From: Polyangiaceae bacterium
GTDB lineage: Bacteria > Myxococcota_A > Polyangia > Polyangiales > Polyangiaceae
Reading direction: 5' to 3'
DNA length: 40,000 nucleotides
NCBI GenBank assembly: GCA_965222375.1
Contig: CBDCTZ010000016.1
Location: forward strand, 342,808-382,807
The translations under genes were made by a program, and so were the position numbers. The notes beneath the pieces are model-generated. The model had not been told where the DNA came from and ran no database searches. It saw only the letters and a program-made list of their open reading frames with translations. Position 1 is the stretch's first letter. Each line of letters opens with the position of its first letter. Of this stretch, positions 16,354-31,480 are shown in pieces.

Positions 16354-16434
16354 GCCTAACAATTGAGGCGTTCAGCAGCGAACGCCGAACAACATACGCA
16401 GACTCTATCACGCTGCAGGCGCAGAATTGCGCCG
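16354..16434 (-). repeat. attC half-site (R'/L' end only)
   Basis: GCCTAACAATTGAGGCGTTCAGCAGCGAACGCC...CACGCTGCAGGCGCAGAATTGCGCCG, after which homology to the attC consensus stops. Confidence 0.7.
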
Positions 16435-16471
16435 CGGTGGCGGTGTGCAAGGAAAATCCGCCGCCGTTCGT

Positions 16472-16891
16472 TCATCGCGCGTTCCTGATCGGGAGGCGGT
16501 CCCAAACGATGCGCGGCGCCAGGCTCCCATCCGGCACGGCCCGCACGGGCACGATGGCGCCCACTGGAAGCGTATCCGGCCATCCGCCACGCGGCGTGAC
16601 CCGTATTTTCGAGATGTTGGGTTCGCAACCCGGGATCTCGACACGCAGCTCGAGCTCGACACTGACGTTCTTGTCACGGGACATCGCATCGGTACAGTCG
16701 ATGATTGAGAGGATCGTTGCCTGGCCCGGTACCGCCAACGCTTCGAAGCGGCGGTCGAGGAACCGGTTGGAGATGAGAAAGAGAACGACGGTGGGCACCA
16801 TCAATGCGATGAACGCAACCGCGCCGCTGCCGCCGCCGTACACAGATTCGACGACCCCGCTTGCCACACAGCTCGCCAGCGCCGCGGCCAA
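16472..16891 (-). CDS. membrane-anchored hypothetical protein (DUF3592-like, tentative)
   Basis: 139-aa ORF with N-terminal TM segments followed by a soluble domain. It lies between the two attC halves. Confidence 0.5.
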   Translation of the reverse strand: MAAALASCVASGVVESVYGGGSGAVAFIALMVPTVVLFLISNRFLDRRFEALAVPGQATILSIIDCTDAMSRDKNVSVELELRVEIPGCEPNISKIRVTPRGGWPDTLPVGAIVPVRAVPDGSLAPRIVWDRLPIRNAR

Positions 16892-17286
16892 GACGACCTA
16901 GTCCAAAGCTCCACGGTCCGAGCTGATGGCACGTCTGCGGGGTCGGAGGTGTCGACCTTGCGTGCCGCCTGCCAATCGCGGCGCGGATCCACCGGCAAGA
17001 GGCGAACAGCCGCGTGGCGCCAGTGCAACGAAGGTCCGACAGCGCCCAGGCCCTCCACTGGCAGCGTAGCCGCGCGTTGTCGGGCTTCCTGACAAGCTAC
17101 GAGGACCTGAGCACCGCGGCCGGCGGACGGTTTCCACGTCATTGCCACAACCGACGTCGCGGAGCGTCTCGTCACGTCGCGGTAGGCCGCGTGGTCCTCG
17201 CCCGCAGGCACCGCCCGGTCTCACGCAAGCAATTGGTTTGACCGAACTAGCGGTTGATGCTCGGTTGCTTGCGGCGGTTCACTTTG

Positions 17287-17343
17287 CGGAGGAGCAGGGA
17301 TTCGACCCCTGGGTGCCCTTTCGGGCGCGCGGTTTTCGAAACC
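17287..17343 (-). other. tRNA-like 3' fragment (anticodon loop to acceptor end, type II-like), abutting an attC half
   Basis: Minus strand: TTCGAAA-ACCGC-G-CGCCCGAAAGGGCACC-CAGGG-GTCGAAT-CCCTG-CTCCTCC-G. It has a T-arm, a GCCC/GGGC variable-arm hairpin and an acceptor 3' strand. There is no 5' half, and G replaces T54. Confidence 0.3.
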
Positions 17344-17509
17344 CAAAATTCTACCACGCTGCAGGCGCAGGGTTGCGCCGACCGCAGCGAAGGCTGCTCG
17401 GCGCAAGAACCCTGCGCGAGACCGAAGGGAACCCCTGGAAGGGGCAGGGCGGGACGGCCGCTATCCACTCAGAAAGCCGGCGGTCGTCTGCTGCAACGTC
17501 CTGTTAGGC
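17341..17509 (-). repeat. attC half-site (R''/L'' end plus centre), long class; attC of the GNAT cassette
   Basis: ACCCAAAATTCTACCACGCTGCAGGCGCAGGGTTGCGCC...CTGCTGCAACGTCCTGTTAGGC. The GCCTAAC end is missing. Confidence 0.7.
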
Positions 17510-18037
17510 CGCCTTCGTGTCGATCCAGTATCGTCGTTTTGGTGTTTCGAGGTCGGGAGCGACGACGACGTTTTCGAGAACGCCGCCGTTCTTTTCGATA
17601 GCTCGGATGGACCCGATATTGTCGTCATCACACGTCACCAGCACGCGTTCGATACCAAGGTGATCGCGGGCGATGTCCATGGACAACCGGAGAATTGTGG
17701 TCGCGTAACCTTGCCGACGAAACTCCGGCACGACGACGAAGCCAATGTGGCCCCCTACGCGAAGCAGAATCTCATTCAGTGAATGTCGGATCGACGTACG
17801 GCCGACGATTCTTGCTCCGGCGAAAGCGAAGAGGAACGTCGATGGAACGTGATTCTGCGATGGTAGTCCGACGCCTCGCGCCCGCTCCGCGAGAATTTGG
17901 AGGTACCTCCGGAAAGGCACGCCCGGTTCATGGTAGTGCAAGAACTCCGGGAAGGTGGGCGATGTCGCCTTGTGAGCTCTGATGAACTCGTCCTCCTCGT
18001 CTTCCGTGGGATGTCTGAGCGTCAGCTCGCGCCGCAT
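17504..18037 (-). CDS. GNAT family N-acetyltransferase (cassette)
   Basis: FRRQGYATTILRLSMDIARDHLGIERVLVTCDDDNIGSIRAIEKNGG. The internal Met at 18037 is chosen because the track ORF runs into the attC. The TAA stop lies inside the attC core. Confidence 0.8.
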   Translation of the reverse strand: MRRELTLRHPTEDEEDEFIRAHKATSPTFPEFLHYHEPGVPFRRYLQILAERARGVGLPSQNHVPSTFLFAFAGARIVGRTSIRHSLNEILLRVGGHIGFVVVPEFRRQGYATTILRLSMDIARDHLGIERVLVTCDDDNIGSIRAIEKNGGVLENVVVAPDLETPKRRYWIDTKAA

Positions 18038-18063
18038 TCTCACCTGAGCTTGGAGAGTTGTAG

Positions 18064-18271
18064 ACCTAGCAATTGAGGCGTTCAGGAACGCCGCGAACAG
18101 CCTCACCCAAGACTACCACGCTGCAGGCGCAGGGTTGCGCCGCACGTGTCGAAGGGTGCTCGGCGCAAGAACCCTGCGCGAGACCGAAGGGAACCCCTGG
18201 AAGGGGCAGGGCGGAACGAACGCCATCCAGTCAGAAAGCCGGCGATCGTCTGCTGCAACGTCGTGTTAGAC
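18064..18271 (-). repeat. attC (long class, degenerate cores ACCTAGC / GTTAGAC)
   Basis: Full-length homolog of the repeat. The core AAC is mutated to AGC, and the L-box differs (TTCAGGAACGCCGCGAAC). Confidence 0.75.
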
Positions 18272-18281
18272 AGCTCTGTTG

Positions 18282-18656
18282 TCAGGGTGCGAGCTTGAAT
18301 TCGACGTTTTCTCGAGTGACGTGGCACTCGTCGCTATCGTCAACAACGACGGTCTTCTTGGCGGTCTGGTATCCAGGCGCGGATACAGTAACCTCGTACG
18401 TTCCAAGTCGCTCACCGACGCCGAAGCAAGTGCAGTCGGTAGCGGCGGAGCACTGGAGAGCCTCCTGGAACTGCCCGTCCTGCGCGACGACGGATGCGTT
18501 GCAAATCCGCTCTCCGGTTGCCTCGTCGCGAACGGTGACGTTGATGGAGTAGTGGAGACTAGCGTCGCAGGACTTACTGCTGCTGCAGTTTGGAAGGACG
18601 GCTAGCAGGGTCGGGCCGAGTAGTAACCACAAGAATCGACTGGAGGAAGCACGCAT
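18282..18656 (-). CDS. lipoprotein with carboxypeptidase-regulatory-like (Ig-like) domain (cassette)
   Basis: Signal peptide with lipobox (LAVLPNC|SS). NVTVRDEATGE...YEVTVSAPGYQTAKKTVVV. Confidence 0.65.
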   Translation of the reverse strand: MRASSSRFLWLLLGPTLLAVLPNCSSSKSCDASLHYSINVTVRDEATGERICNASVVAQDGQFQEALQCSAATDCTCFGVGERLGTYEVTVSAPGYQTAKKTVVVDDSDECHVTRENVEFKLAP

Positions 18657-18660
18657 GTCT

Positions 18661-18873
18661 GTCTAACGATTGAGGCGTTCAGCAGCGAACGCCAGCAACA
18701 GCATACACAAAAACCCACCACGCTGCAGGCGCAGGGTTGCGCCGAAGGCAGCGAAGGCTGCTCGGCGCAAGAACCCGGCGCGAGACCGAAGGGAACCCCT
18801 GGAAGGGGCAGGGCGGAACGGACGCCATCCAGTCAGCAAGCCTGCGGTCGTCTGCTGCAACGTCTTGTTAGGC
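18661..18873 (-). repeat. attC (long class, 213 bp)
   Basis: GTCTAACGATTGAGGCGTTCAGCAGCGAACGCC...CTGCTGCAACGTCTTGTTAGGC. Confidence 0.85.
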
Positions 18874-18899
18874 GGCATGCGCTGGGCTACGCTTAGTTC

Positions 18900-19124
18900 G
18901 TGGACCTACAGCTGACAGCGGTTTTCAAGAAGGTACCGCAAGGGTACATTGCGTTCGTGGAAGAACTTCCTGGTGCGAACACCCAGGGCGCCACGCTTGA
19001 CGAGGCGCGAGAAAACTTGCGGGAAGCCGTCGAATTGGTGCTTGTTGCCAACCGCGAGTTCGCGCGTGAGGACGCCGGTGACGACGAAGTAATCCGCGAG
19101 CAACTCAGGATCGCTAGCGGGTGA
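18900..19124 (+). CDS. hicB: HicB family antitoxin (cassette in inverted orientation)
   Basis: MDLQLTAVFKKVPQGYIAFVEELPGANTQGATLDEARENLREAVELVL. GTG start. There is a 4-nt overlap with hicA. Confidence 0.8.
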   Translation: MDLQLTAVFKKVPQGYIAFVEELPGANTQGATLDEARENLREAVELVLVANREFAREDAGDDEVIREQLRIASG

Positions 19125-19306
19125 AGCGTCGCGATCTGATCCGGCATCTTGAGAAGAACGGTTGCCGGCTCCTGCGCGAGGGTGGAAGTCACTCGGTGTA
19201 CGTCAATCCAGCGGCGAAGAAGGCATCAACTGTGCCTCGCCACTCCGAGGTCAACGACCATCTCGCGCGCAAGATCTGCAAGGATCTCGATGTGCCTCGC
19301 CCTTAG
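19121..19306 (+). CDS. hicA: HicA mRNA-interferase toxin
   Basis: MKRRDLIRHLEKNGCRLLREGGSHSVYVNP...VPRHSEVNDHLARKICKDL is the canonical HicA pattern. Confidence 0.85.
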   Translation: MKRRDLIRHLEKNGCRLLREGGSHSVYVNPAAKKASTVPRHSEVNDHLARKICKDLDVPRP

Positions 19307-19351
19307 CGGAGTGCGCTCCAACGGCCAGCCTGCGCGATGAGTCTGTGGTCC

Positions 19352-19562
19352 GCCTAACAATTGAGGCGTTCAGCAGCGAACGCCAGAAACAACACCACCC
19401 AAGACTACCACGCTACAGGCGCAGGGTTGCGCCGAACGCAGCGAAGGCTGCTCGGCGCAAGACCCCTGCGCGAGACCGAAGGGAACCCCTGGAAGGGGCA
19501 CGGCGGAGCGAACGCCAACCAGTCAGAAAGCCGGCGGTCGTCCGCTGCAACGTCCTGTAGGC
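19352..19562 (-). repeat. attC (long class) with 1-bp deletion in the R'' core (GTAGGC instead of GTTAGGC)
   Basis: GCCTAACAATTGAGGCG...CCGCTGCAACGTCCTGTAGGCGG. One T of the core is missing. Confidence 0.8.
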
Positions 19563-19814
19563 GGGGTTCACCGTGACGTAGAACGCCGCTGGCGGGGGCA
19601 GCTCGGTGGCGGCGCTGGCGAAAGCATGCGCGGCAGCAATGGACTTAGTGTGAATGGAAACAACGTCGCCCTCGAACACGCAGCGATCCACGTATGCCTT
19701 TGCGTCGACAAGAGAGAGCCCAAGGTGAGTGCAGAGCAGTCGGATTACTTCGACGGTCCCGACGCTAGCGGGACCACAGAAACGCGGGTCGATCCGGAGT
19801 TGTACAGTGGGCAT
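19413..19814 (-). CDS. hypothetical protein, second gene of a two-gene cassette; the C-terminus reads through into the attC
   Basis: The native part of about 84 aa (MPTVQL...FYVTVNPA) has a weak L7/L12-C-like pattern (VEVIRLLCTHLGLSLVDAKAYVD). An intact core would give NPA-TAA at about 19560. The deletion extends the ORF to 19413. Confidence 0.55.
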   Translation of the reverse strand: MPTVQLRIDPRFCGPASVGTVEVIRLLCTHLGLSLVDAKAYVDRCVFEGDVVSIHTKSIAAAHAFASAATELPPPAAFYVTVNPAYRTLQRTTAGFLTGWRSLRRAPSRGSLRSRAGVLRRAAFAAFGATLRL

Positions 19815-20203
19815 CAGTGATCACTTCGCGTCGGCGGCTGTAGGCGTGCCCTGATGTATCCGCGAGCCTCGAGATTGAGTCCCCACTCGTCGGTCCCGCG
19901 CGAAATGCCCAAGAAGTAAAGGTTCCGATCAAGTTGTTCAAAGTGCACATCGCAGTCGGACGCGCGCAACGACACCAGCGTTGATTCGTCGTCGACCTCT
20001 ACCGTCACCCATGCGGGTTGGTCATCCCAGGGATGGACCTGAATTCGGTTTTTCTGGGTCGTCCAGACGTCGATAACCGTGCTTGTTGAACCCCCGACCC
20101 GAAGGACGTAGCGCGCAGCACCAGTTCGGACGATCTCAATCAAGACGTCGTCGGCAGCAAAGTCATCGACGTCGCCGCTGGGCTGGACCTCGAGGCGCAT
20201 CAC
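19814..20203 (-). CDS. hypothetical protein, first gene of a two-gene cassette
   Basis: 129-aa ORF. Its stop overlaps the next start (ATGA-type coupling at 19812-19816). It starts 7 nt from the attC core. Confidence 0.6.
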   Translation of the reverse strand: MMRLEVQPSGDVDDFAADDVLIEIVRTGAARYVLRVGGSTSTVIDVWTTQKNRIQVHPWDDQPAWVTVEVDDESTLVSLRASDCDVHFEQLDRNLYFLGISRGTDEWGLNLEARGYIRARLQPPTRSDH

Positions 20204-20209
20204 TCCTCC

Positions 20210-20396
20210 GCCTAACGATTGAGGCGTTCAGCAGCGAACGCCAGCAACAGCATAACCAAAAAACCACCACGCTGCAGGCGCAGGGTTGCACCGAACGCAT
20301 CGAAGGATGCTCGGTGCAAGAACCCTGCGCGCAGGGCGGAACGGACGGTACCCGGTCAGAAAGGCCGCGATCGTCTGCTGCAACGTCCTGTTAGAC
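20210..20396 (-). repeat. attC (short class, 187 bp)
   Basis: GCCTAACGATTGAGGCG...CTGCTGCAACGTCCTGTTAGAC. Confidence 0.85.
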
Positions 20397-20690
20397 CGCC
20401 CGGTCACGCCAGTAGCCTGGTCGGCGCTTGCAGTGTGCGATGGCCACAACCAGCACCACTTCTCCACGCACGCAGTACACGACTTCGTAGGGGAACCGCT
20501 GCAGAAGGAACCGTCGCGTTCCCTCAAGATGTGCTGGCCAGGCGCCGGGCGCTGCCACGATTTCGCGAAAGGCGCGACGAACCTCGAGTTCAAAGGCGGT
20601 CGCGGCTACGGGGTTGCGCTCGGCGTACCACTCTGCCGCCGCGCGAGCCTCGTCTGCAGCCTCGGCGAGTACATCAAGTACGACCGCCAC
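20391..20690 (-). CDS. parE: ParE/RelE-superfamily toxin (cassette)
   Basis: AEADEARAAAEWYAERNPVAATAFELEVRRAFREI...RRFLLQRFPYEVVYCVRGEVVLVVAIAHCKRRPGYW. The stop TAA lies in the attC core. Confidence 0.75.
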   Translation of the reverse strand: MAVVLDVLAEAADEARAAAEWYAERNPVAATAFELEVRRAFREIVAAPGAWPAHLEGTRRFLLQRFPYEVVYCVRGEVVLVVAIAHCKRRPGYWRDRAV

Positions 20691-20913
20691 TCGCGATTGC
20701 TTTCAGGTCGTCCAACAGTTGTTCACCGGAAACAACGCGCGCCTTTCCGGCGTCGTAGGCCTGAACACGCTTTTGGATTTCGACCGCCCACGCGACGTCG
20801 CGGTCGGCGTCCGGTGGGGATTCATCCAGACTGTGAATTAGCTCGCCCAGGAGTTTCGCGCGGGCCTCAACTGGCAGACGGAGCGCTTCCTGCAGCAGTT
20901 GGTCGATATCCAT
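20674..20913 (-). CDS. addiction-module-component type antitoxin
   Basis: MDIDQLLQEALRLPVEARAKLLGELIHSLDE...VAWAVEIQKRVQAYDAGKARVVSGEQL. It overlaps the toxin gene start. Confidence 0.6.
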   Translation of the reverse strand: MDIDQLLQEALRLPVEARAKLLGELIHSLDESPPDADRDVAWAVEIQKRVQAYDAGKARVVSGEQLLDDLKAIASGGRT

Positions 20914-20962
20914 GAACCCAGTGTACCAGAGCAAGCGGCCACGGCCAGATACGGCGTTGTCG

Positions 20963-21148
20963 GTTTAACAATTGAGGCGTTCAGCAGCGAACGCCAGGAA
21001 CATCATACCAAAAAACCAAAAGGCTTCAGGCGCAGGGTTGCGCCGAACGCAGCGAAGGCTGCTCGGTGCAAGACCCCTGCGCGCAGGGCGGAACGGACGC
21101 TACCCAGTCAGAAAGCCGGCGATCGTCTGCTGCAACGTCCTGTTAGGC
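20963..21148 (-). repeat. attC (short class)
   Basis: GTTTAACAATTGAGGCG...CTGCTGCAACGTCCTGTTAGGC. Confidence 0.85.
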
Positions 21149-21154
21149 CGCCCG

Positions 21155-21514
21155 CTAACCCATAGACCTCGCAGCCGGGCCGTGCGGCTCTGGCCAGACG
21201 AACTTCACGAAGTAGATGGCCGCAGCCACGAAGCTGCCAACGAAGAGGAAGATGGCCCAAAGCACGCGAGCGTTCTGATCGAGTGCGGCGTTCTTGAAGA
21301 CGTGTGCGACGTAGAAGACGAGGAGCGCAAGGACCTCAAGCATAGTGAGGACATGGAGAGCGAGCAGTGTTGGTATCGCAGAGGCGACCGCGGGCGGGTC
21401 CTGGCCAATGGTTGTGATCGTGGTGAGAAACGCTGCAAAGAAGAGCAGCATGTAGAGTGGAGGCCAGCATGTAGCGACGCCGACAAAGATCTTGGTGCGC
21501 TTGCTCAGTTGCAC
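21155..21514 (-). CDS. small multi-pass membrane protein (cassette)
   Basis: 119 aa with 3-4 hydrophobic helices (CWPPLYMLLFFAAFLTTI, LLALHVLTMLEVLALLVFYV, LWAIFLFVGSFVAAAIYFV). Confidence 0.6.
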   Translation of the reverse strand: MQLSKRTKIFVGVATCWPPLYMLLFFAAFLTTITTIGQDPPAVASAIPTLLALHVLTMLEVLALLVFYVAHVFKNAALDQNARVLWAIFLFVGSFVAAAIYFVKFVWPEPHGPAARSMG

Positions 21515-21539
21515 AGAAACCTACGGGCAAAGCCAGTCG

Positions 21540-21752
21540 GCCTAACGATTGAGGCGTTCAGCAGCGAACGCCAGCAACAGCATACCCAAAAAACCAAAAC
21601 GCTGCAGGCGCAGGGTTGCGCCGAACGCAGCGAATGCTGCTCGGCGCAAGAGCCCTGCGCGAGACCGAAGGGAACCCTTGGAAGGGGCAGGGCGGAACGA
21701 AGGCCATCCAGTCAGAAAGCCGGCGGTCGTCTGCTGCAACGTCCTGTTAGGA
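21540..21752 (-). repeat. attC (long class, 213 bp)
   Basis: GCCTAACGATTGAGGCG...GAGACCGAAGGGAACCCTTGGAAGGGGCAGGGCGG...CTGTTAGGA. Confidence 0.85.
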
Positions 21753-21805
21753 GGCTGAGGGTGTCAGGTGCTGGAACAACGGACGCCAGGTGGTGTCATT
21801 AGATC

Positions 21806-22270
21806 GTGTGGGCAAGGGCGGCATTGACTCTCGTGCTGGCAATCGGATGTGAGCAACCGCCACCGGTAGAACTTGCGCGGGCGGGTGGGGCCGCTGGTGC
21901 CATCGAGAGAGCGCGCCAGAGTGTCATGGAGAATCACGCTTACGAGCGCCTCGCCTCGGCCAATGCACGGCTTGTGGTAGGCCACACCTGTTACTACGGT
22001 GCGAAGCGCCCGCAAGGTTGGGCGGAGCTGAACGTGCTTGTGCGTGCACGTCGTGACGACCTGCTGTGGCGGTTGCAGCGAGCGCCAACGCCGGAAGCGC
22101 GCTTGTACGGCGCGATCGGCTTGCGGGAAACGGAAGCGGTTGGCCCGAAGTGGTTCAAAGTGCTGGTGGCGGCGGTCCGGGAGCCCGTGGCGACGTGCAG
22201 AGGGTGCCTGCTTTCATCGGGTTCGGCGGTGGAAGCAGTTGCCGCGTACGATGACTGGGAGTCGGCCTAA
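21806..22270 (+). CDS. putative lipoprotein (cassette in inverted orientation)
   Basis: This is the only long ORF in the cassette. It has a lipobox-like LVLAIGC|E. Its TAA stop lies in the GCCTAAC core of the next attC. The start codon is uncertain. Confidence 0.5.
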   Translation: MWARAALTLVLAIGCEQPPPVELARAGGAAGAIERARQSVMENHAYERLASANARLVVGHTCYYGAKRPQGWAELNVLVRARRDDLLWRLQRAPTPEARLYGAIGLRETEAVGPKWFKVLVAAVREPVATCRGCLLSSGSAVEAVAAYDDWESA

Positions 22271-22450
22271 CAATTGAGGCGTTCAGCAGCGAACGCCAGA
22301 AACAACACCAACCAACAATATCACGCTACAGGCGCAGGGTTGCGCCGACCGCAGCGAAGGCTGCTCGGTGCAAGACCCCTGCGCGCAGGGCGGAACGGAC
22401 GCCATCCAGTCAGAAGGCCGGCGTTCGACTGCTGCAACGTCCTGTTAGGC
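22265..22450 (-). repeat. attC of cassette A (copy 1; short class)
   Basis: By eye it is the same as 30648-30833, at a constant offset of 8383. Confidence 0.85.
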
Positions 22451-22452
22451 CG

Positions 22453-22893
22453 CTACGCTACTCCGACGCCTTCCGCGCCTGCACTTCCGGGTCCGGAAGG
22501 AGGCGGTATGTCGGCAACCAGCGCCTCGATGCGCGGCAAGCGAGGAGTGACAGCAGATCGGACCGTTTCAATGGATTGAGGTGCCGAAAAACGAAGGAGC
22601 AACACGTAGATCCCGCCAAAGGATCTGAGATAGGCATCGCCGGAGCGGCGTTTCGCGAAGCGATCAAGGCGGCCGCCGCGACGGAGCGGGGGATCGAGAC
22701 TGGCGAGTTCGTCCAAAACGATCTGCGCAGCGGGAGAGCGGCCGTCGTCCTTCACGTGTTCGCTGGAACACCAGAGCGTACCGCGACTGTCGAGCACGTA
22801 GGCGTAGATGGCGCGGGCATCGGCAGCCAAATTGGTCAGCACGCGCCGCAGCTCGGACGAGGCCGGCGTTTCAGGACCCATGCGCATTCCCAC
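22453..22893 (-). CDS. cassette A protein, unknown function (copy 1 of 2); weak roadblock/LC7-like impression
   Basis: 146-aa ORF, identical in translation to 30836-31276. The start may be a downstream ATG. Confidence 0.6.
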   Translation of the reverse strand: MGMRMGPETPASSELRRVLTNLAADARAIYAYVLDSRGTLWCSSEHVKDDGRSPAAQIVLDELASLDPPLRRGGRLDRFAKRRSGDAYLRSFGGIYVLLLRFSAPQSIETVRSAVTPRLPRIEALVADIPPPSGPGSAGAEGVGVA

Positions 22894-22910
22894 CCACTGT
22901 CTCGACGTCG

Positions 22911-23097
22911 GCCTAACAATTGAGGCGTTCAGCAGCGAACGCCAGAAACAACATACCCAAACTCTACCACGCAGTCAGGCGCAGGGTTGCGCCGAACGCA
23001 GCGAAGGCTGCTCGGTGCAAGAACCCTGCGCGCAGGGCGGAACGGACGCTGACGAGTCAGAAAGCCGGCGGTCGTCTGCTGCAACGTCCTGTTAGGC
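22911..23097 (-). repeat. attC of cassette B (copy 1 of 4; short class)
   Basis: Same sequence at 27596, 29437 and 31294. The overlapping six-frame ORFs are identical in all four copies. Confidence 0.88.
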
Positions 23098-23101
23098 AAC
23101 G

Positions 23102-23467: not shown

Positions 23468-23477
23468 CTGCGCGATT

Positions 23478-23664
23478 GCCTAACAATTGAGGCGTTCAGC
23501 AGCGAACGCCAGGAACAACATACCCAGACATTATCACGCAGTCGGGCGCAGGGTTGCGCCGACCGCAGCGAGGGCTGCTCGGCGCAAGAACCCTGCGCGC
23601 AGGGCGGAACGGACGCCATCCAGTCGAAAAGCCGGCGGTCGTCTGCTGCAACGTCCTGTTAGGA
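23478..23664 (-). repeat. attC of cassette C (copy 1 of 2; short class)
   Basis: GCCTAACAATTGAGGCG...CTGTTAGGA. Same as 28163-28349. Confidence 0.85.
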
Positions 23665-23686
23665 GGCGTCGTTCTTTAGCAGTCGA

Positions 23687-24076: not shown

Positions 24077-24081
24077 CGTCC

Positions 24082-24603: not shown

Positions 24604-24717
24604 GTAACCGTTCAGGGGTAGGGCGCCTGGACACCGCGGTCTCGCGCAAGCGATCGAGATTGCTCCATTATTTCAATCGGCTTTCCATCTTCGCAAAAAT
24701 GGGCGATTGGGACGCTG

Positions 24718-26172
24718 GTGAGCGATCCGCAGGCCGACCGTACCCGGCAGCTCGAGGCTGAAGTTGCAGCCAAAGATGCCCGCATCGCGGAGCAGGATGC
24801 GCGCATCGCGGAGCAGGATGCCCGCATCGCGGAGCTTGAGCAGCAGGTTGCTAGCTTGCTGGAGAAGCTGAATCAAAACTCGTCGAATTCGCACAAGCCA
24901 CCGTCCAGCGATCCCCCGGGCAATCGGAAGGAGCGTCGATCGCGGGCCAAGCAGAAGAAGCGCAAGCGAGGTGGGCAGAAGGGGCACCCGGGCAGCCACC
25001 GAAACTTGGTGCCGGAAGATCAGGTGGACAAGTTCGTCGACCACTTCCCACGCGAGTGCGAAAATTGCTGGAAACCGCTGCCGGAAGTCCGCGACCCGCA
25101 CGCCCATCGTCACCAGGTGACCGAGGTCCCACCCATCCGCCCGCACACGACCGAGTATCGTCGCCACGCGGTAGCCTGCGCAGGCTGCGCCCATGTCACT
25201 TGCGCGCGCTACGACGAATCTCTGATCCCAACGTCCTCATTTGGACCTCGCCTGATGGCGTTAGTGGCTCTCTTTACGGGCGTGTATCATCTCAGCCGGC
25301 GCAAGGCGCAAGGGCTACTTGCCGATGTGCTGGGCGTCTCGGTTTCACTCGGCGCGATCAGTGCGGTCGAAGAGCGCGTCAGCGACGCGCTCGCGCCCGC
25401 GGTCAATGAAGCCTGGGACCATGCGGTCCAGGCCGATGTGAAACACACCGATGGAACAACCTGGTTTCAGGCAGGCACGACGATGTCCCTTTGGACCATC
25501 GCCACCGCGGCGGTGACGGTGTTCCGGATCCTCGCCGATGGCGCCAAAGACACACTCCGGCCGTTGTTCGGCGACCTGAATGGGATCTTGGTAAGTGATC
25601 GCGCCACAGCACTTACTTTCTGGGCGGCGGAGCGCCGGCAGATCTGTTGGGCGCATTTGCTACGTAAGTTTGTGTCGTTCTCGGAGCGCGATGGTCCCGC
25701 CGGCGCGCTTGGCCGAGACTTGCTCGGCTACACCGGCATCTTGTTCGATTATTGGCGCGACTACCGGGCGGGGAAAATGACCCGGGAGCGATTTCTGGCG
25801 TGGATGGCTCCGCTGCGGCAGCAGATGGAGGCTATGTTCGAGAAGGCTGTCCTCCTCGACATCAAGGACTTGTCGGGGTCGTGCGCCAACATTCTGAAAT
25901 ACAAGGAGGCGCTTTGGACCTTCATCGAGCGCGATGACGTGGAGCCGACAAACAACCATGCCGAAAGGGAACTGCGCGCTTTCGTGCTCTGGCGCAAGGG
26001 CTCGTTCGGAAGCCAGAGCAAGCGTGGCAACGTCTTCGCTGAGCGCGTGATGACCATCGCGCACACGGCGCGCAAGCAGAACAAGAACGTGCTGACTTTC
26101 CTCGCCGAGTCCTGCCAAGCTCGCATGGAGGGGACAAACTGGCCCTCCTTGTTCAAGACCGCAGCAGCTTGA
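24718..26172 (+). CDS. IS66-family transposase (TnpC-like)
   Basis: N-terminal coiled coil with a 3x ARIAEQD repeat, NSSNSHKPPSSD, a Cys cluster (CENC...CAGC), and TNNHAERELR near the C-terminus. Confidence 0.88.
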   Translation: MSDPQADRTRQLEAEVAAKDARIAEQDARIAEQDARIAELEQQVASLLEKLNQNSSNSHKPPSSDPPGNRKERRSRAKQKKRKRGGQKGHPGSHRNLVPEDQVDKFVDHFPRECENCWKPLPEVRDPHAHRHQVTEVPPIRPHTTEYRRHAVACAGCAHVTCARYDESLIPTSSFGPRLMALVALFTGVYHLSRRKAQGLLADVLGVSVSLGAISAVEERVSDALAPAVNEAWDHAVQADVKHTDGTTWFQAGTTMSLWTIATAAVTVFRILADGAKDTLRPLFGDLNGILVSDRATALTFWAAERRQICWAHLLRKFVSFSERDGPAGALGRDLLGYTGILFDYWRDYRAGKMTRERFLAWMAPLRQQMEAMFEKAVLLDIKDLSGSCANILKYKEALWTFIERDDVEPTNNHAERELRAFVLWRKGSFGSQSKRGNVFAERVMTIAHTARKQNKNVLTFLAESCQARMEGTNWPSLFKTAAA

Positions 26173-26173
26173 G

Positions 26174-26587
26174 TCACTCAGTATCGGCCGCGGCGTCCAC
26201 CGCCATCGGGAAGTACCGCGTCAGATGCTTGGAACCGACGCTCCGGATCTGCCCCGCACTCCTCAAACGCGTCATCGGTCGGTGCAGCTCGCGCACCGAA
26301 ATGCCGACTTCCTCTGCCAGCGCCGCCATGCCCTTGCCGGGGCTCGCACAGATGGCCGCGTAGAGCCGCTGCCCAATCGCCGTAACTTCCTCGGGTGGAC
26401 GGCGACGTCCCGTGCGACCTCTCGACCCTGTCGATGACTTCCGCGCCCTGGCAGCCCGCGTCTCCGCCACCGCGAAGCCTCGCTCGACCGCCTCCTGCGC
26501 GCTCCGCCGGCTTTCCGCGATGTGCTCCCGAACCAGCTGCTCGATCCGCTCCGACAATCCCTCGCTGTTACTCGTCGTCTTCGCCAT
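26174..26587 (-). CDS. HTH/winged-helix DNA-binding protein encoded inside the IS, opposite strand to the transposase
   Basis: 137-aa ORF between the transposase stop and the right inverted repeat. GKGMAALAEEVGISVRELHRPMTRLRSAGQIRSVG looks like an HTH. Confidence 0.55.
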   Translation of the reverse strand: MAKTTSNSEGLSERIEQLVREHIAESRRSAQEAVERGFAVAETRAARARKSSTGSRGRTGRRRPPEEVTAIGQRLYAAICASPGKGMAALAEEVGISVRELHRPMTRLRSAGQIRSVGSKHLTRYFPMAVDAAADTE

Positions 26588-26643
26588 GCGCCACGAATCT
26601 CACGTCCCGAGCCGGGCCCTCAACCCAACCCCTGAACGGTTAC

Positions 26644-26706
26644 GCCGGAAGAGGCTACCAGGGCAGCGTGAAGCCTGAGCACCTCGCCGAGTGTCAGGAA
26701 CCTCAT
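26644..26706 (-). pseudogene. doc: doc toxin gene, 5' fragment (21 codons)
   Basis: ATG at 26706. The fragment reads MRFLTLGEVLRLHAALVASSG and ends in the target-site duplication. Its start overlaps the antitoxin stop (ATGA). Confidence 0.8.
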
Positions 26707-26900
26707 CGAGCAAGCCGACGATACAACTCCGCGTTTTTCGACAGGACGCGGTTCGCGGCATTCTCGAAGTCGTCCGCCGGTTGACCTAGGAGGTCAGCGA
26801 TTAGGGCGGAGGCCAACTGCTCTGCGGAGATGCCCAGTGACTTCGCCCTCTCGCGAAGGGCTTCGATCTGGGTTTCCGTCAGTTCGACCGGCATTTGCAT
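26703..26900 (-). CDS. ribbon-helix-helix type antitoxin partnered with doc
   Basis: MQMPVELTETQIEALRERAKSLGISAEQLASALIADLL. An internal Met is chosen because the track ORF 26703-26993 starts inside the attC. Confidence 0.65.
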   Translation of the reverse strand: MQMPVELTETQIEALRERAKSLGISAEQLASALIADLLGQPADDFENAANRVLSKNAELYRRLAR

Positions 26901-26984
26901 GCGAGAAGTGTAGCCGATTTTCTGACGACGGAAACCGGGGCCAACGAAGGCGCCACTCACCAACGCCGCAGCGCGAGATGCTCC

Positions 26985-27197
26985 GCCTAACAATTGAGGC
27001 GTTCAGCAGCGAACGCCAGGAACAGCATACCCAAAAACCCACAACGCTGCAGGCGCAGGGTTGCGCCGAACGCAGCGAAGGCTGCTCGGCGCAAGAACCC
27101 TGCGCGAGACCGAAGGGAACCCCTGGAAGGGGCAGGGCGGAACGAACGCAGTCCAGTCAGAGCGCCTGCGGTCGTCTGTTGCAACGTCCTGTTAGGA
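26985..27197 (-). repeat. attC (long class, 213 bp)
   Basis: GCCTAACAATTGAGGCG...GAGACCGAAGGGAACCCCTGGAAGGGGCAGGGCGG...CTGTTAGGA. Confidence 0.85.
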
Positions 27198-27590
27198 GGC
27201 TCCGTGGCGGATGGGGGCAAACTCGTTCGGACGCTCGTAAAAAACGCGTTCAAACCGTTCGGTGAGGAAGCTGTCGCTCGGGACCAGTTCGGCGTAGCGC
27301 TCGTTTGCGACGTGCTCAGTTTCGTCCGTCCACTGAGAGAGGACGGGATCCGTCGCCGCCCCGTTGAGGAAGGCGGCCACGTCCTGCAGACCGAAGTAGG
27401 AGAACCCGTCTGCAGCAGCAGCGAGTTCGACCGCTGTGAGGACATCGATGACATGGTGAACGCCGCCGTTCATCGCGATTCCGTGTGCTCGCAACAGAGC
27501 CGCGAGGGCGGTGTCACCGGAGTGTGGTGTCAGACCGCCAGACTCCAAGGCTGCGCGGTTCCAAACCTGATCCGCGGTGGAAAGAGTCAT
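27192..27590 (-). CDS. cassette F protein, unknown function (NGG-motif, possibly DUF4375/DMP19-like)
   Basis: 132-aa ORF. ALAALLRAHGIAMNGGVHHVIDVL. The stop TAA lies in the attC core. Confidence 0.55.
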   Translation of the reverse strand: MTLSTADQVWNRAALESGGLTPHSGDTALAALLRAHGIAMNGGVHHVIDVLTAVELAAAADGFSYFGLQDVAAFLNGAATDPVLSQWTDETEHVANERYAELVPSDSFLTERFERVFYERPNEFAPIRHGAS

Positions 27591-27595
27591 CGTCC

Positions 27596-27782
27596 GCCTA
27601 ACAATTGAGGCGTTCAGCAGCGAACGCCAGAAACAACATACCCAAACTCTACCACGCAGTCAGGCGCAGGGTTGCGCCGAACGCAGCGAAGGCTGCTCGG
27701 TGCAAGAACCCTGCGCGCAGGGCGGAACGGACGCTGACGAGTCAGAAAGCCGGCGGTCGTCTGCTGCAACGTCCTGTTAGGC
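27596..27782 (-). repeat. attC of cassette B (copy 2)
   Basis: Matches 22911-23097 at a constant offset of 4685. Confidence 0.88.
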
Positions 27783-27786
27783 AACG

Positions 27787-28152
27787 CTACGAGGACTTGC
27801 GGGTCAACCGTGACGCCACCTCGACCAACCCGTTGGTGATGACTTCCGGAAGCGGCGCCGCCAACTTCGTTCGGAGGAGCGCAGCGATGTCCATTGTGAA
27901 CAGCACTTCTCCGCCAGCGAAGAGTGAGACGGTTTCGTCCTCCTGGTGCAACCCATCTGGCCACCACTTCCGCTGCCACTCGATCCTCAGGGGCTGGTCC
28001 TGGATCGAAGCGCAACGGAGGACGACACTGGCGGGGTTGTATGCCGTTTCTGATTCCTGAATTTGAACAACCTCGAGACCAAGTTCCTCGAGTCTTGCGC
28101 GGAGGTTGGAGACCGCCGCGGTGTCAGACAGGAAAAGGAAGGGCTGAGCCAC
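27787..28152 (-). CDS. cassette B protein (copy 2 of 4)
   Basis: Its translation is identical to that of 23102-23467. Confidence 0.65.
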   Translation of the reverse strand: MAQPFLFLSDTAAVSNLRARLEELGLEVVQIQESETAYNPASVVLRCASIQDQPLRIEWQRKWWPDGLHQEDETVSLFAGGEVLFTMDIAALLRTKLAAPLPEVITNGLVEVASRLTRKSS

Positions 28153-28162
28153 CTGCGCGATT

Positions 28163-28349
28163 GCCTAACAATTGAGGCGTTCAGCAGCGAACGCCAGGAA
28201 CAACATACCCAGACATTATCACGCAGTCGGGCGCAGGGTTGCGCCGACCGCAGCGAGGGCTGCTCGGCGCAAGAACCCTGCGCGCAGGGCGGAACGGACG
28301 CCATCCAGTCGAAAAGCCGGCGGTCGTCTGCTGCAACGTCCTGTTAGGA
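28163..28349 (-). repeat. attC of cassette C (copy 2)
   Basis: Matches 23478-23664 at offset 4685. Confidence 0.85.
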
Positions 28350-28371
28350 GGCGTCGTTCTTTAGCAGTCGA

Positions 28372-28761
28372 CTATTCCGTACGGCCAAGAGGCACCGCTT
28401 GGGACCAGCGAGCGCCCTCCTGACATTCGAGCATGGCGCCCTGGTTGTGTGCAACGAGACGGAGGGGCCGCGAGGTGACGCACCGAAGGAAGGCATTCAG
28501 ATCGCTCGCCATTGCGGTCATGAGCTCGTGGCGGGGCGTGTCATCGTACCCGTCGTAATCGCACCAGTCGGTGACCTCCAGTCCGGAGGAGTGCTTCGCG
28601 TCGACGAACCACTCGAGAACGTTGATGGCAGCGTGGACTGTCACGGAAAGCTCGTCCCGTGTGAGGACAATCTCAACATACTCCGCGTGCCGCTGGACAA
28701 CCACGCCCGGCGTTCCGGCGAAGGCCTCCACCGCAGCGACGTGGGGACGGAGAGCTTTCAC
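28372..28761 (-). CDS. cassette C protein (copy 2 of 2)
   Basis: Identical to 23687-24076. GTG start at 28761. Confidence 0.55.
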   Translation of the reverse strand: MKALRPHVAAVEAFAGTPGVVVQRHAEYVEIVLTRDELSVTVHAAINVLEWFVDAKHSSGLEVTDWCDYDGYDDTPRHELMTAMASDLNAFLRCVTSRPLRLVAHNQGAMLECQEGARWSQAVPLGRTE

Positions 28762-28766
28762 CGTCC

Positions 28767-28953
28767 GCCTAACAATTGAGGCGTTCAGCAGCGAACGCCA
28801 GAAACAGCATACCCAAAAAACCTCAACGCTGCAGGCGCAGGGTTGCGCCGAACGCAGCGAATGCTGCTCGGTGCAAGAACCCTGCGCGCAGGGCGGAACG
28901 GACGCCATCCAGTCAGAAAGCCGGCGGTCGTCTGCTGCAACGTCCTGTTAGGC
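28767..28953 (-). repeat. attC (short class) of cassette D
   Basis: GCCTAACAATTGAGGCG...CTGCTGCAACGTCCTGTTAGGC. Its variable segment differs from that of the attC at 24082. Confidence 0.85.
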
Positions 28954-28988
28954 AGCTGGCGGCCCGCGCGTCGAAGCACGTGCCGTCG

Positions 28989-29432
28989 TCAGCGTGGCTT
29001 TGTCGCAACTCCGCGCAAGATGTCGATGCGATTCGGGGGAGCGTTCGGAGACATGAAGTCGGGAATGGTTTCCGCCGTTCGTCGAGGCCTGCTCAGGAAC
29101 TCCACAGGCCACTCCGTCACGCGGCGCTGCTTGACGTGGACGTACCGGCCGTCTTCGTGCTCATCAATGAATTCTTGTTGGACGATGAGCGCCAAGGGCT
29201 CTTGAGCGCCGCTGGTCTGCCTCGAAAACTCGAACGCTTCGTCACAAGACGCGAAAGCGTAGAAGTAGTCGCTCCCGTTGTCCTCGTCGTCAGCTCCTTC
29301 AGACGGACAGCACCAGACGCGATACTCGAGAACGCCGTCCCAGACATACCCCCCACCAGCGTGTGCTTCTGCAGGATAGGTGCCGACGAGCGCGGGATCC
29401 ACGACGGGCGGATATGTGTCGTCTGCTCTCAT
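28989..29432 (-). CDS. cassette D protein, unknown function
   Basis: 147-aa acidic ORF (GGYVWDGVLEYRVWCCPSEGADDEDNGSDYFYAF). It starts 5 nt from the attC core. Confidence 0.6.
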   Translation of the reverse strand: MRADDTYPPVVDPALVGTYPAEAHAGGGYVWDGVLEYRVWCCPSEGADDEDNGSDYFYAFASCDEAFEFSRQTSGAQEPLALIVQQEFIDEHEDGRYVHVKQRRVTEWPVEFLSRPRRTAETIPDFMSPNAPPNRIDILRGVATKPR

Positions 29433-29436
29433 GCCT

Positions 29437-29623
29437 GCCTAACAATTGAGGCGTTCAGCAGCGAACGCCAGAAACAACATACCCAAACTCTACCACGCAG
29501 TCAGGCGCAGGGTTGCGCCGAACGCAGCGAAGGCTGCTCGGTGCAAGAACCCTGCGCGCAGGGCGGAACGGACGCTGACGAGTCAGAAAGCCGGCGGTCG
29601 TCTGCTGCAACGTCCTGTTAGGC
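29437..29623 (-). repeat. attC of cassette B (copy 3)
   Basis: Matches 22911-23097 at offset 6526. Confidence 0.88.
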
Positions 29624-29627
29624 AACG

Positions 29628-29993
29628 CTACGAGGACTTGCGGGTCAACCGTGACGCCACCTCGACCAACCCGTTGGTGATGACTTCCGGAAGCGGCGCC
29701 GCCAACTTCGTTCGGAGGAGCGCAGCGATGTCCATTGTGAACAGCACTTCTCCGCCAGCGAAGAGTGAGACGGTTTCGTCCTCCTGGTGCAACCCATCTG
29801 GCCACCACTTCCGCTGCCACTCGATCCTCAGGGGCTGGTCCTGGATCGAAGCGCAACGGAGGACGACACTGGCGGGGTTGTATGCCGTTTCTGATTCCTG
29901 AATTTGAACAACCTCGAGACCAAGTTCCTCGAGTCTTGCGCGGAGGTTGGAGACCGCCGCGGTGTCAGACAGGAAAAGGAAGGGCTGAGCCAC
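29628..29993 (-). CDS. cassette B protein (copy 3 of 4)
   Basis: Its translation is identical to the other copies. Confidence 0.65.
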   Translation of the reverse strand: MAQPFLFLSDTAAVSNLRARLEELGLEVVQIQESETAYNPASVVLRCASIQDQPLRIEWQRKWWPDGLHQEDETVSLFAGGEVLFTMDIAALLRTKLAAPLPEVITNGLVEVASRLTRKSS

Positions 29994-30003
29994 CTGCGCG
30001 ATT

Positions 30004-30189
30004 GCCTAACAATTGAGGCGTTCAGCAGCGAACGCCAGAAACAACATCAACCAACCCTACCACGCTGCAGGCGCAGGGTTGCGCCGAACGCAGCGAAGGC
30101 TGCTCGGCGCAAGAACCCTGCGCGCAGGGCGGAACGGACCTCACCCAGCCAGAAAGCCGGCGGTCGTCTGCTGCAACGTCCTGTTAGGA
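30004..30189 (-). repeat. attC (short class) of cassette E
   Basis: GCCTAACAATTGAGGCG...AACATCAACCAACCCTACCACGCTGCAGG...CTGTTAGGA. Confidence 0.85.
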
Positions 30190-30217
30190 GGCGCGGTTCA
30201 GTTGGCGGAATGTACGT

Positions 30218-30631
30218 CTACGAATTCGCCGCCCGCTCGAGTGCTTCGCTGATGTCGGTGGCCCAGGACTTCGCGTCACGAAACGGACGTAAGAAGACGT
30301 GATCGTGTCCTGCGAACGCGAGCTCCATGTGCATCGCGGGGGCCCGCATGGCGTTCGAACTGTGCACAACGACAGGGTACCGGTGAGGCTGGCCGGCGAG
30401 GAAGGAAGACACGTCCTGTCCAGACCCCGGGTTTTCGCCCCGCAACGCGGGTGCGTCCAAGTCGCAATCAAGCGAAAGAACGTGGGCGCGTCCAGGGTGC
30501 AAGCGCAACCATGACAGCATTTCGTGCGCAGACTCGAAGAGCAGGAGCTCGCAGTCCACCAGCAACTTGAGGGCACGTCGCATCTCGGCAATGCGCCACA
30601 CGTCATCCTCAAGCACAGCGATCAGCGTCAT
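30218..30631 (-). CDS. receiver (REC)-like domain protein, resembles cyclic-phosphate-processing receiver domains (cassette E)
   Basis: MTLIAVLEDD...HVLSLDCDLD...GQDVSSFLAG...PVVVHSSNAMRAPAM. This follows a REC-like beta-alpha pattern without an output domain. Confidence 0.45.
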   Translation of the reverse strand: MTLIAVLEDDVWRIAEMRRALKLLVDCELLLFESAHEMLSWLRLHPGRAHVLSLDCDLDAPALRGENPGSGQDVSSFLAGQPHRYPVVVHSSNAMRAPAMHMELAFAGHDHVFLRPFRDAKSWATDISEALERAANS

Positions 30632-30647
30632 GAAGAGGTGGTCGTCC

Positions 30648-30833
30648 GCCTAACAATTGAGGCGTTCAGCAGCGAACGCCAGAAACAACACCAACCAACA
30701 ATATCACGCTACAGGCGCAGGGTTGCGCCGACCGCAGCGAAGGCTGCTCGGTGCAAGACCCCTGCGCGCAGGGCGGAACGGACGCCATCCAGTCAGAAGG
30801 CCGGCGTTCGACTGCTGCAACGTCCTGTTAGGC
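30648..30833 (-). repeat. attC of cassette A (copy 2)
   Basis: Matches 22265-22450 at offset 8383. Confidence 0.85.
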
Positions 30834-30835
30834 CG

Positions 30836-31276
30836 CTACGCTACTCCGACGCCTTCCGCGCCTGCACTTCCGGGTCCGGAAGGAGGCGGTATGTCGGCAA
30901 CCAGCGCCTCGATGCGCGGCAAGCGAGGAGTGACAGCAGATCGGACCGTTTCAATGGATTGAGGTGCCGAAAAACGAAGGAGCAACACGTAGATCCCGCC
31001 AAAGGATCTGAGATAGGCATCGCCGGAGCGGCGTTTCGCGAAGCGATCAAGGCGGCCGCCGCGACGGAGCGGGGGATCGAGACTGGCGAGTTCGTCCAAA
31101 ACGATCTGCGCAGCGGGAGAGCGGCCGTCGTCCTTCACGTGTTCGCTGGAACACCAGAGCGTACCGCGACTGTCGAGCACGTAGGCGTAGATGGCGCGGG
31201 CATCGGCAGCCAAATTGGTCAGCACGCGCCGCAGCTCGGACGAGGCCGGCGTTTCAGGACCCATGCGCATTCCCAC
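30836..31276 (-). CDS. cassette A protein (copy 2 of 2)
   Basis: Its translation is identical to that of 22453-22893. Confidence 0.6.
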   Translation of the reverse strand: MGMRMGPETPASSELRRVLTNLAADARAIYAYVLDSRGTLWCSSEHVKDDGRSPAAQIVLDELASLDPPLRRGGRLDRFAKRRSGDAYLRSFGGIYVLLLRFSAPQSIETVRSAVTPRLPRIEALVADIPPPSGPGSAGAEGVGVA

Positions 31277-31293
31277 CCACTGTCTCGACGTCG

Positions 31294-31480
31294 GCCTAAC
31301 AATTGAGGCGTTCAGCAGCGAACGCCAGAAACAACATACCCAAACTCTACCACGCAGTCAGGCGCAGGGTTGCGCCGAACGCAGCGAAGGCTGCTCGGTG
31401 CAAGAACCCTGCGCGCAGGGCGGAACGGACGCTGACGAGTCAGAAAGCCGGCGGTCGTCTGCTGCAACGTCCTGTTAGGC
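31294..31480 (-). repeat. attC of cassette B (copy 4)
   Basis: Matches 22911-23097 at offset 8383. Confidence 0.88.

Follow-up and report, generated by a model that had tools for sequence, protein, structure and literature searches.

A lineage-specific family of attC sites of record length in a chromosomal integron of a Polyangiaceae bacterium

A 40,000-nucleotide stretch of contig CBDCTZ010000016.1 of a Polyangiaceae bacterium (assembly GCA_965222375.1, positions 342,808 to 382,807 of the forward strand; hereafter the window, numbered from its first letter) carries an integron integrase gene, intI, adjoined by an array of long and highly similar repeats. These repeats are very probably the attC sites of a sedentary chromosomal integron, with an ordinary attC function and a central hairpin whose role is most likely passive. 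They form a new attC family, specific to its lineage and of record length, and represent neither a new kind of site nor a new mechanism.

In general, attC sites are recombined by the integrase IntI as folded bottom-strand DNA, with a crossover at G|TT. In the window, IntI would read a canonical basal stem of the folded bottom strand and the crossover would take place at GCCTAA|C. The hairpin, which belongs to the variable terminal structure (VTS) of the sites, would be kept by selection or concerted evolution as a bottom-strand structure, most likely with the passive role of compacting a long VTS. The homogeneity of the family would reflect that all cassettes of the lineage carry a single attC type, as in other chromosomal integrons, and its two length classes would result from one insertion event that then spread among cassettes via recombination between attCs.

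Copies of the repeat and their recognition arms

Repeat finding, pattern scanning and extraction yielded 18 complete copies in the window, 13 of 186-187 nt (short class) and five of 208-213 nt (long class), and three partial ones (17341, 16354 and 13828). The lengths and coordinates given by an earlier note on this DNA were thus reproduced, i.e. 186-187 nt for the 13 short copies and 208, 213, 211, 213 and 213 nt for those at 18064, 18661, 19352, 21540 and 26985, as was its claim that the sites exceed the usual attC length, which is 57-141 bp (PMC5027507, PMC5371416). A profile search of the 40-kb window, built from the attC copies, recovered the complete copies with E-values of 1e-51 to 1e-63 and found no copy outside 13828-31480 or on the opposite strand. 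Only 13 of the 18 complete copies are distinct in the alignment because three cassettes are duplicated (31294 is identical to 22911, 27596 and 29437; 30648 to 22265; 28163 to 23478). The copies are listed below from intI outwards; the probabilities are those predicted for the recombinogenic fold.

31294-31480, minus strand: attC, 187 nt, short class, of cassette 1 (open reading frame, ORF, 31485-31850)
30648-30833, minus strand: attC, 186 nt, short class
30004-30189, minus strand: attC, 186 nt, short class; probability 0.91
29437-29623, minus strand: attC, 187 nt, short class
28767-28953, minus strand: attC, 187 nt, short class; probability 0.92
28163-28349, minus strand: attC, 187 nt, short class
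27596-27782, minus strand: attC, 187 nt, short class
26985-27197, minus strand: attC, 213 nt, long class, with the 26-nt insert at 27107-27132; probability 0.11
24082-24268, minus strand: attC, 187 nt, short class; reference copy for the DNA fold
23478-23664, minus strand: attC, 187 nt, short class
22911-23097, minus strand: attC, 187 nt, short class
22265-22450, minus strand: attC, 186 nt, short class
21540-21752, minus strand: attC, 213 nt, long class; probability 0.89
20963-21148, minus strand: attC, 186 nt, short class
20210-20396, minus strand: attC, 187 nt, short class, with the compensatory variants GCACC/GGTGC and GCATC/GATGC
19352-19562, minus strand: attC, 211 nt, long class, degenerate (a 1-nt deletion in R'' gives GTAGGC); minimum-energy fold devoid of the terminal stem
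18661-18873, minus strand: attC, 213 nt, long class; probability 0.33
18064-18271, minus strand: attC, 208 nt, long class, degenerate (R' is ACCTAGC, 4-nt deletion in the arm); probability 2e-5
17341-17509, minus strand: truncated long-class attC devoid of the R'/L' arm, adjoining a tRNA-like fragment; profile positions 46-185
16354-16435, minus strand: partial attC limited to the R'/L' arm, 5' linker and initial half of the hairpin; profile positions 1-84
13828-13923, minus strand: long-class attC remnant with the insert, the 3' linker and the R''/L'' arm; distal limit of the recognisable array

A short candidate attC at 15548-15622, located between two distal ORFs and showing loose RYYYAAC/GTTRRRY-like ends, was rejected, as its fold (z-score about 0) is no better than that of shuffled sequences; therefore, the cassettes left of 16354 carry no recognisable attC.

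As the cassettes are encoded on the minus strand of the window, the plus strand is the recombinogenic bottom strand of the attCs. Folded as single-stranded DNA, the plus strand of the whole reference copy reaches -58.6 kcal/mol (z = -6.9), with a basal stem of about 27 bp. This stem includes an R box of 7 bp (5'-GCCTAAC / GTTAGGC-3') and an L box (GTT/AAC). An asymmetric spacer separates the two boxes, with AATTGAGGC (9 nt) on the R' arm opposite GTCCT (5 nt) on the R'' arm, and is unpaired except for a part with predicted pairing (AGG/CCT). Inwards of the L box come, in this order, an unpaired C at position 16 from the 3' end (C16), a 6-bp stem (CAGCAG/CTGCTG), an unpaired T at position 23 (T23) and 7 further bp. 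The parts of the reference copy on the plus strand are the following.

24082-24088, plus strand: R'
24089-24097, plus strand: 5' spacer
24098-24100, plus strand: L' (GTT)
about 24115-24149, plus strand: 5' linker
24150-24202, plus strand: central hairpin
about 24203-24235, plus strand: 3' linker
24246, plus strand: T23
24253, plus strand: C16
24254-24256, plus strand: L'' (AAC)
24262-24268, plus strand: R'' (GTTAGGC)

Minimum-energy DNA folds of 27 distinct copies give the basal stem with an extrahelical C16 in 24 copies and an extrahelical T23 in 21, and 94% of the R-box cells are paired. GCCTAAC...GTTAGGC or near variants bound 16 of the 18 complete copies, the exceptions being 18064 (ACCTAGC) and 19352 (GTAGGC). 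The earlier note had proposed to look for a conserved R/L pairing with extrahelical bases, and both are present. According to the published rule, attCs display an L'' extrahelical base at position 16, usually G, and a conserved T at position 23 or 24, and the 6-bp stem located between the extrahelical bases is required for efficient recombination (Nivina et al., PMC5027507). In these predicted folds, the part read by IntI is therefore canonical, save for two differences, the C in place of G at position 16 and the greater length of one spacer arm. The 5' arm of the attCs is also self-complementary (GGCGTTC-AGCAGC-GAACGCC, e.g. 26998-27017), so that a local 7-bp hairpin can arise in competition with the basal stem; this local hairpin prevails in the minimum-energy fold of the long copy 26985.

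Integron context, signs of activity and distribution of the family

The array runs leftward from intI and attI over about 18 kb and includes 18 complete cassettes and distal remnants, with one attC per cassette, all in a single orientation. The attCs are spaced by 567-2903 bp and the cassette ORFs are mostly located on the minus strand. The recombination functions of the integron are as follows.

32228-33202, plus strand: intI, integron integrase of 324 aa, intact ORF, identified by TIGR02249, Pfam and catalytic motifs
31861-32010, minus strand: putative attI region, of approximate extent, conserved in the sister locus described below

The integrase matches TIGR02249 over model positions 1-315 of 315 with 423 bits (cut-off 265), carries the Pfam domains Phage_integrase and Phage_int_SAM_4 and displays visible HxxR and MVYTHV catalytic motifs; its named relatives come from Polyangiaceae and Minicystis. 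The first cassette joins the attI region at GCCTAAC|AG (31861-31869). Beyond this junction lie GTCTAACAG at 31906, the 26-bp palindrome CACGTTAGGTGGGTCCACCTAACGTG at 31957 and TCTAACAG at 31998; the TAAC-containing motifs and the palindrome probably constitute attI.

Several blocks of the array are 100% identical to each other. Indeed, 22265-23485 and 30648-31868 share 1221 bp encompassing two cassettes, 22911-24088 is identical to 27596-28773, and 22911-23512 to 29437-30038. Globally, one 567-bp cassette, whose 121-aa ORF has no known function, occurs four times, once in the attI-proximal position. The 1221-bp block begins exactly with the GCCTAAC and reaches into the attI junction, and this location of its ends at an R box and at attI argues that the sites may well be active. 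As the homology between attI and the attCs is limited to 8 nt, homologous recombination does not explain the attI-proximal copy; the latter would originate from the excision of a two-cassette circle followed by its insertion through attI x attC recombination. All short copies have a predicted probability of 0.6-0.92 for the recombinogenic fold; for three long ones, it is 0.89 (21540), 0.33 (18661) and 0.11 (26985). Distally, the long copies 18064 and 19352 carry R-box mutations and fold incorrectly, which fits decay at the old end of the array.

The arm-plus-centre pattern, checked with nhmmer, detected no member of the family beyond chance in 185,579 bacterial and archaeal genomes, one per species, among which the source genome does not figure. 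The 26 single pattern matches found in unrelated taxa were rejected: none is arrayed, they correspond to chance or conserved-gene matches, and nhmmer confirms no copy. Ten of the 26 span exactly 82 nt (L008, L011-L014, L018, L020, L021, L025 and L027, from Bacteroidota, Treponema and Hyphomonadaceae) and are probably one conserved gene segment of no relation to the attC family. Searches of plasmids and viral contigs gave no matches. Among metagenomes, the central-hairpin pattern had 0 matches and the arm pattern had four, only one of which (on contig L035) is a true copy, albeit truncated. A protein search whose query was the attC translated in six frames revealed two further contigs (L038 and L039).

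The family was therefore found elsewhere at three places. On L035 (JGI Ga0209567_10086841), the copy at 1074-1185 stops three quarters of the way through the hairpin and runs into an inositol-monophosphatase-like gene; it may represent the terminus of an array from another relative, or else a chimeric assembly. The NCBI metagenome contig L039 carries one 186-nt copy beside an IS21 helper gene. The third place is L038, a 7.8-kb ENA contig (1-7762, ERZ25072999) with 13 copies of 185-188 nt, which overlaps the contig L037 (1-1713) by 359 bp with 100% identity. L037 encodes an IntI 94% identical to that of the window, with the same attI and a flank syntenic with 35173-40000 of the window (78-90% identity). 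The overlap, the integrase identity, the common attI and the syntenic flank indicate that L037 and L038 belong to a sister genome with an integron at the same locus. This sister integron includes at least 14 cassettes, 13 of them with complete short-class attCs, the first encoding an Imm35 immunity protein. It has only one ORF in common with the window cassettes (L038 1394-2290 / window 21532-22455). As the locus is fixed and the attC family is the same while nearly all cassettes differ, the integron is considered a sedentary chromosomal one. The sister contig breaks at the array, as expected where short repeats abound.

A more distant integrase, encoded by the contig L041 (JGI 3300079164, 900-4880) and 67% identical to that of the window, is accompanied by attCs of 144-163 nt that form an unrelated family and have a branched VTS. 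These sites display G+C-rich hairpins, extrahelical C16/17 and T23, and their cassettes mostly encode toxin-antitoxin functions (ParE, Fic, BrnT). As they too exceed 141 nt, long attCs seem to be a tendency of the integrase clade to which both belong, the window family being the extreme. For the IntI relatives showing 63-72% identity (L001-L006, L040 and L042), the array lies off the contig or no repeat family is present.

The cargo of the window cassettes is of the kind usual in chromosomal integrons and includes GNAT acetyltransferases, HicAB (inverted), ParE/antitoxin, Fic/Doc and many ORFs that belong to no family; an inverted toxin-antitoxin pair is common for such cassettes. The Fic/Doc cassette owes its length of 2903 bp to an IS66-family insertion sequence (24604-26643), which carries a transposase gene (24718-26172, plus strand) and a small helix-turn-helix ORF (26174-26587, minus strand) and is bounded by terminal inverted repeats (GTAACCGTTCAGGGG / CCCCTGAACGGTTAC) and an 8-bp target duplication (GCCGGAAG). 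At the distal end, the sequence 17278-17340 (minus strand), which directly adjoins the truncated attC 17341, resembles the 3' part of a tRNA-Ser(CGA), with an anticodon-loop-like TTCGAAA, a long variable arm, a T-arm (CAGGG-GTCGAAT-CCCTG) and the 3' strand of the acceptor; ARAGORN and Rfam call no tRNA there. This fragment and the partial attC 16354 bracket about 0.9 kb (16436-17277) carrying two ORFs that belong to no family, which may be the scar of an integrative element or of a deletion. On the other side of the array, a 44-nt tandem repeat (33176-33299, 2.8 copies, 87% matches) reiterates the last intI codons and the stop region (…CAGCCCGCTCGACGGGCTCTGCTGAGCGGATGAA…). The flanking genes include those of a Ser/Thr kinase and of an FHA-sigma54 activator, whose best named relatives come from Sorangium, Minicystis, Polyangiales and Kofleriaceae (45-53% identity). 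These affinities suggest that the host is an uncultured and divergent lineage of the Myxococcota, similar to Polyangia.

The variable terminal structure, its hairpin and the rival explanations

The extra length of the attCs resides wholly in the VTS (about 120-147 nt), in which two linkers of about 35 nt surround a G+C-rich hairpin of 53 nt. The 5' linker is A/C-rich, almost devoid of G and variable. The hairpin (GCGCAGGGTT-GCGCCGA-AC-GCAGC-GAAG-GCTGC-TCGGCGC-AAG-AACCCTGCGC) comprises 22 bp, a GAAG loop and an AAG bulge, and its plus strand alone reaches -27.7 kcal/mol (z = -6.6). The self-complementary centre described by the earlier note is thus confirmed, and so is the lack of complementarity between the linkers, which DNA folding predicts to be unpaired. 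Its proposal of a branched or bulged fold holds in so far as the basal stem opens into a large loop that carries the central hairpin.

Among the 27 distinct copies, 98% of the cells pair and the hairpin stems are much more conserved than the adjacent linkers. Four pairs show compensatory double changes, all of them within the hairpin (columns 75/119, 83/108, 85/106 and 93/100); the covariation score (0.052 versus 0.036 in shuffles) was reached by 0 of 500 shuffles, and the count of compensated cells lies above all 500. Where only one side of a pair has changed, the plus strand shows G.T, in 16 cells from seven hairpin positions, and never A.C (p = 0.016 if the positions are independent). This asymmetry suggests that the hairpin is maintained on the bottom DNA strand rather than in a minus-strand transcript. 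Two functions of the hairpin were rejected. It is not a nested attC or R box, since inspection shows that the GTT/AAC order is wrong and that the flanks are unlike RYYYAAC; nor is it a thermodynamic folding aid, as the predicted folding probability at equilibrium, governed by the 27-bp basal stem, stays essentially the same when the hairpin is deleted or shuffled. The best-supported reading of the hairpin is that of a structural element of the VTS; it might also have a kinetic role.

In the alignment, the two length classes differ solely by a 26-nt indel, AGACCGAAGGGAACCCCTGGAAGGGG, located between ...CCCTGCGCG and CAGGGCGG, i.e. directly after the hairpin in the long class. This sequence occurs seven times in the window, always within an attC copy, with 0 occurrences expected by chance; the seven include those in the truncated copy 17341 and in the remnant 13828-13923, in agreement with the earlier note. 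The latter had called it a hairpin insert: the insert does separate the two classes, but its hairpin nature is weak, with only a 5-bp stem (CCCCT/AGGGG) and a z-score of -1.4 for the region. It lies 1-2 nt off the centre of a perfect 14-nt palindrome, CCCTGCGCGCAGGG, which is intact in the short class, so that an insertion appears more likely than a precise deletion. Most long copies (13828, 17341, 18064, 18661 and 19352) are grouped near the distal, older end of the array, with two others at 21540 and 26985. In the promoter-proximal part of the sister array, all 13 copies belong to the short class. The insert is found on differing 5'-linker backgrounds, and the only orthologous cassette has an attC of the long class in the window but of the short class in L038; the attCs have therefore exchanged segments by recombination or gene conversion.

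Highly similar and strongly structured repeats located between genes could be a generic intergenic element abundant near intI, of the repetitive extragenic palindromic (REP) or miniature inverted-repeat transposable element (MITE) type, instead of recombination sites. This explanation can practically be discounted: the copies are bounded by RYYYAAC/GTTRRRY and display the extrahelical bases 16 and 23, their orientation is strictly uniform with one copy per cassette, the duplicated blocks are bounded by the R box and attI, the repeats of the sister genome only adjoin the orthologous intI, and the 185,579 species genomes include no true matches. The scatter independent of intI that the earlier note had envisaged is not seen either, as the 22 kb of the window beyond the array are devoid of any copy. 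It is also quite improbable that the centre acts in the cassette transcripts (minus strand) as an intrinsic terminator, a stabilising or processing hairpin or a small RNA; the terminator and the small RNA had been raised by the earlier note. The minus-strand hairpin is equally stable (-27.3 kcal/mol) and some copies have a T-run 10-15 nt downstream on this strand; however, the T-run belongs to the variable linker and is missing from many copies, terminator-like sites are as numerous as in shuffles (16 versus 17.8 +/- 4.6), and no Rfam match was obtained at the gathering threshold in the whole window or at E<=1 in 16300-24300. Furthermore, nine copies display a G.T at columns 83/108, which would be an A.C mismatch in the minus-strand RNA, and all 16 wobble cells favour the plus strand, i.e. 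the non-transcribed one. Promoter-like sites show no excess over shuffles.

The hairpin and the 26-nt module could also be hitchhikers: a palindrome inserted in the VTS of a founder attC and, later, a second insertion would have spread by concerted evolution or attC templating while having no role in recombination, in repeats that would nonetheless be attCs. This main alternative is possible, if doubtful, and is compatible with the reading of the hairpin as a structural element. It would account for a folding probability that stays the same when the hairpin is deleted or shuffled, for an insert so close to the centre of a palindrome, as expected of an insertion, and for the mixed backgrounds and the orthologous cassette of differing class. 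Unlike purely neutral DNA, however, the hairpin has stems far more conserved than the linkers, and all compensatory changes and wobbles keep the bottom-strand pairing; moreover, the hairpin pattern has 0 matches outside attCs in the metagenome scan and no free-living parent element is known. An active second module selected on the bottom strand is an unlikely alternative to a passive hairpin. Such a module would nucleate cruciform extrusion or strand opening in the supercoiled duplex, or would dock a host or integrase-associated protein, to which the 4-nt loop and the AT-richer, G-poor flanking linker could contribute. If so, very long attCs could fold independently of replication or conjugation, the 26-nt module would tune folding, and the sites would form a modular attC class in Myxococcota-type integrons.

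Several observations weigh against the preferred reading, i.e. ordinary attCs with a maintained and passive hairpin. The extrahelical base at position 16 is a C, where the literature has usually a G. The basal stem is near-invariant (16 of 20 pairs never vary), so that covariation provides no test of it. The identical blocks could in principle be assembly artefacts of a repeat-rich region. The covariation of the hairpin is modest, since four compensated pairs were also reached in 13 of 500 shuffles, and the hairpin variants are common to related copies. Three of the seven wobble positions come from the single degenerate copy 18064, and a strand-biased mutation pressure could yield the same asymmetry. 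Lastly, the predicted folding probability is essentially unchanged not only when the hairpin is deleted or shuffled but also when the whole VTS is shuffled.

Comparison with known attC sites and significance

Every structural feature of attCs that was tested is present in the window repeats, which lie outside only the descriptive length range. A full-text literature search found no description of an attC longer than about 141 bp. The VTS reportedly varies between 3 nt and, for large sites including the Vibrio cholerae repeats (VCRs; PMC5027507, PMC5371416), a complex branched structure; the IntegronFinder paper (PMC4889954) gives 20 to 100 nt. The sites of the window (186-213 nt versus 57-141 bp) and their VTS (about 120-147 nt versus 3-100 nt) both exceed these ranges.

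The VCRs are the closest known counterpart. They also constitute a homogeneous lineage-specific family in a long chromosomal array adjoining intI, with R and L boxes, bottom-strand extrahelical bases and a long branched VTS (PMC5371416, PMC5027507). Their arrays likewise harbour toxin-antitoxin cassettes and many ORFs of no known function, and the cassettes differ between close relatives while the attC type is constant. However, the VCRs are shorter (120-129 nt), their VTS is a long imperfect stem whereas that of the window is modular (linker, conserved 53-nt hairpin, linker), and their extrahelical base at position 16 is a G instead of a C. The folding probability also differs, 0.6-0.9 being predicted in the window whereas 1e-5 to 1e-7 is reported for Vibrio sites.

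The 5' arm of the aadA7 attC presumably begins like that of the window sites (TAACAATT). aadA7 and the other attCs of mobile integrons (57-141 bp) have in common with them the RYYYAAC...GTTRRRY ends, the extrahelical base 16, T23 and the 6-bp stem (PMC5027507), but their VTS can be as short as 3 nt, versus 120-147 nt in the window, and their spacer arm usually has 5-6 nt instead of 9. A precedent for distinct length classes within one array is provided by the Treponema succinifaciens integron, whose attC classes of 63, 68 and 132 bp show a high within-class identity (PMC3607928). The latter are, however, different attC types, whereas the classes of the window are one sequence with or without a 26-nt insertion. 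The attCs of L041 resemble those of the window by their related integrase clade, a length above 141 nt, a multi-branched VTS and extrahelical C16/17 and T23, but differ by an unrelated VTS sequence, a length 25-55 nt shorter and the lack of an optional 26-nt module. As the recognition part is canonical and branched VTSs have already been described for the VCRs, the window repeats are a longer family and not a new structural principle. The new attC structural variant suggested by the earlier note is therefore not retained, all the more so since the 144-163-nt sites of L041 are likewise long.

The existence of such sites has consequences for the detection of integrons. The default attC size limit of IntegronFinder is 200 bp, so that the long class would be missed and arrays of this kind fragmented. 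Integron surveys of Myxococcota and of other phyla that have received little study would be biased by this cap. A maximum-attC-size parameter is available in the program (PMC13616975). Furthermore, the natural series of sites with or without the 26-nt insert and with compensatory hairpin variants suits the study of the effects of VTS size and structure on folding, strand choice and SSB competition. Globally, this family extends the natural length record of attCs by about 50% (187-213 nt versus a maximum of 141 nt), and the part recognised by IntI stays canonical while the VTS grows to about 150 nt with a conserved substructure.

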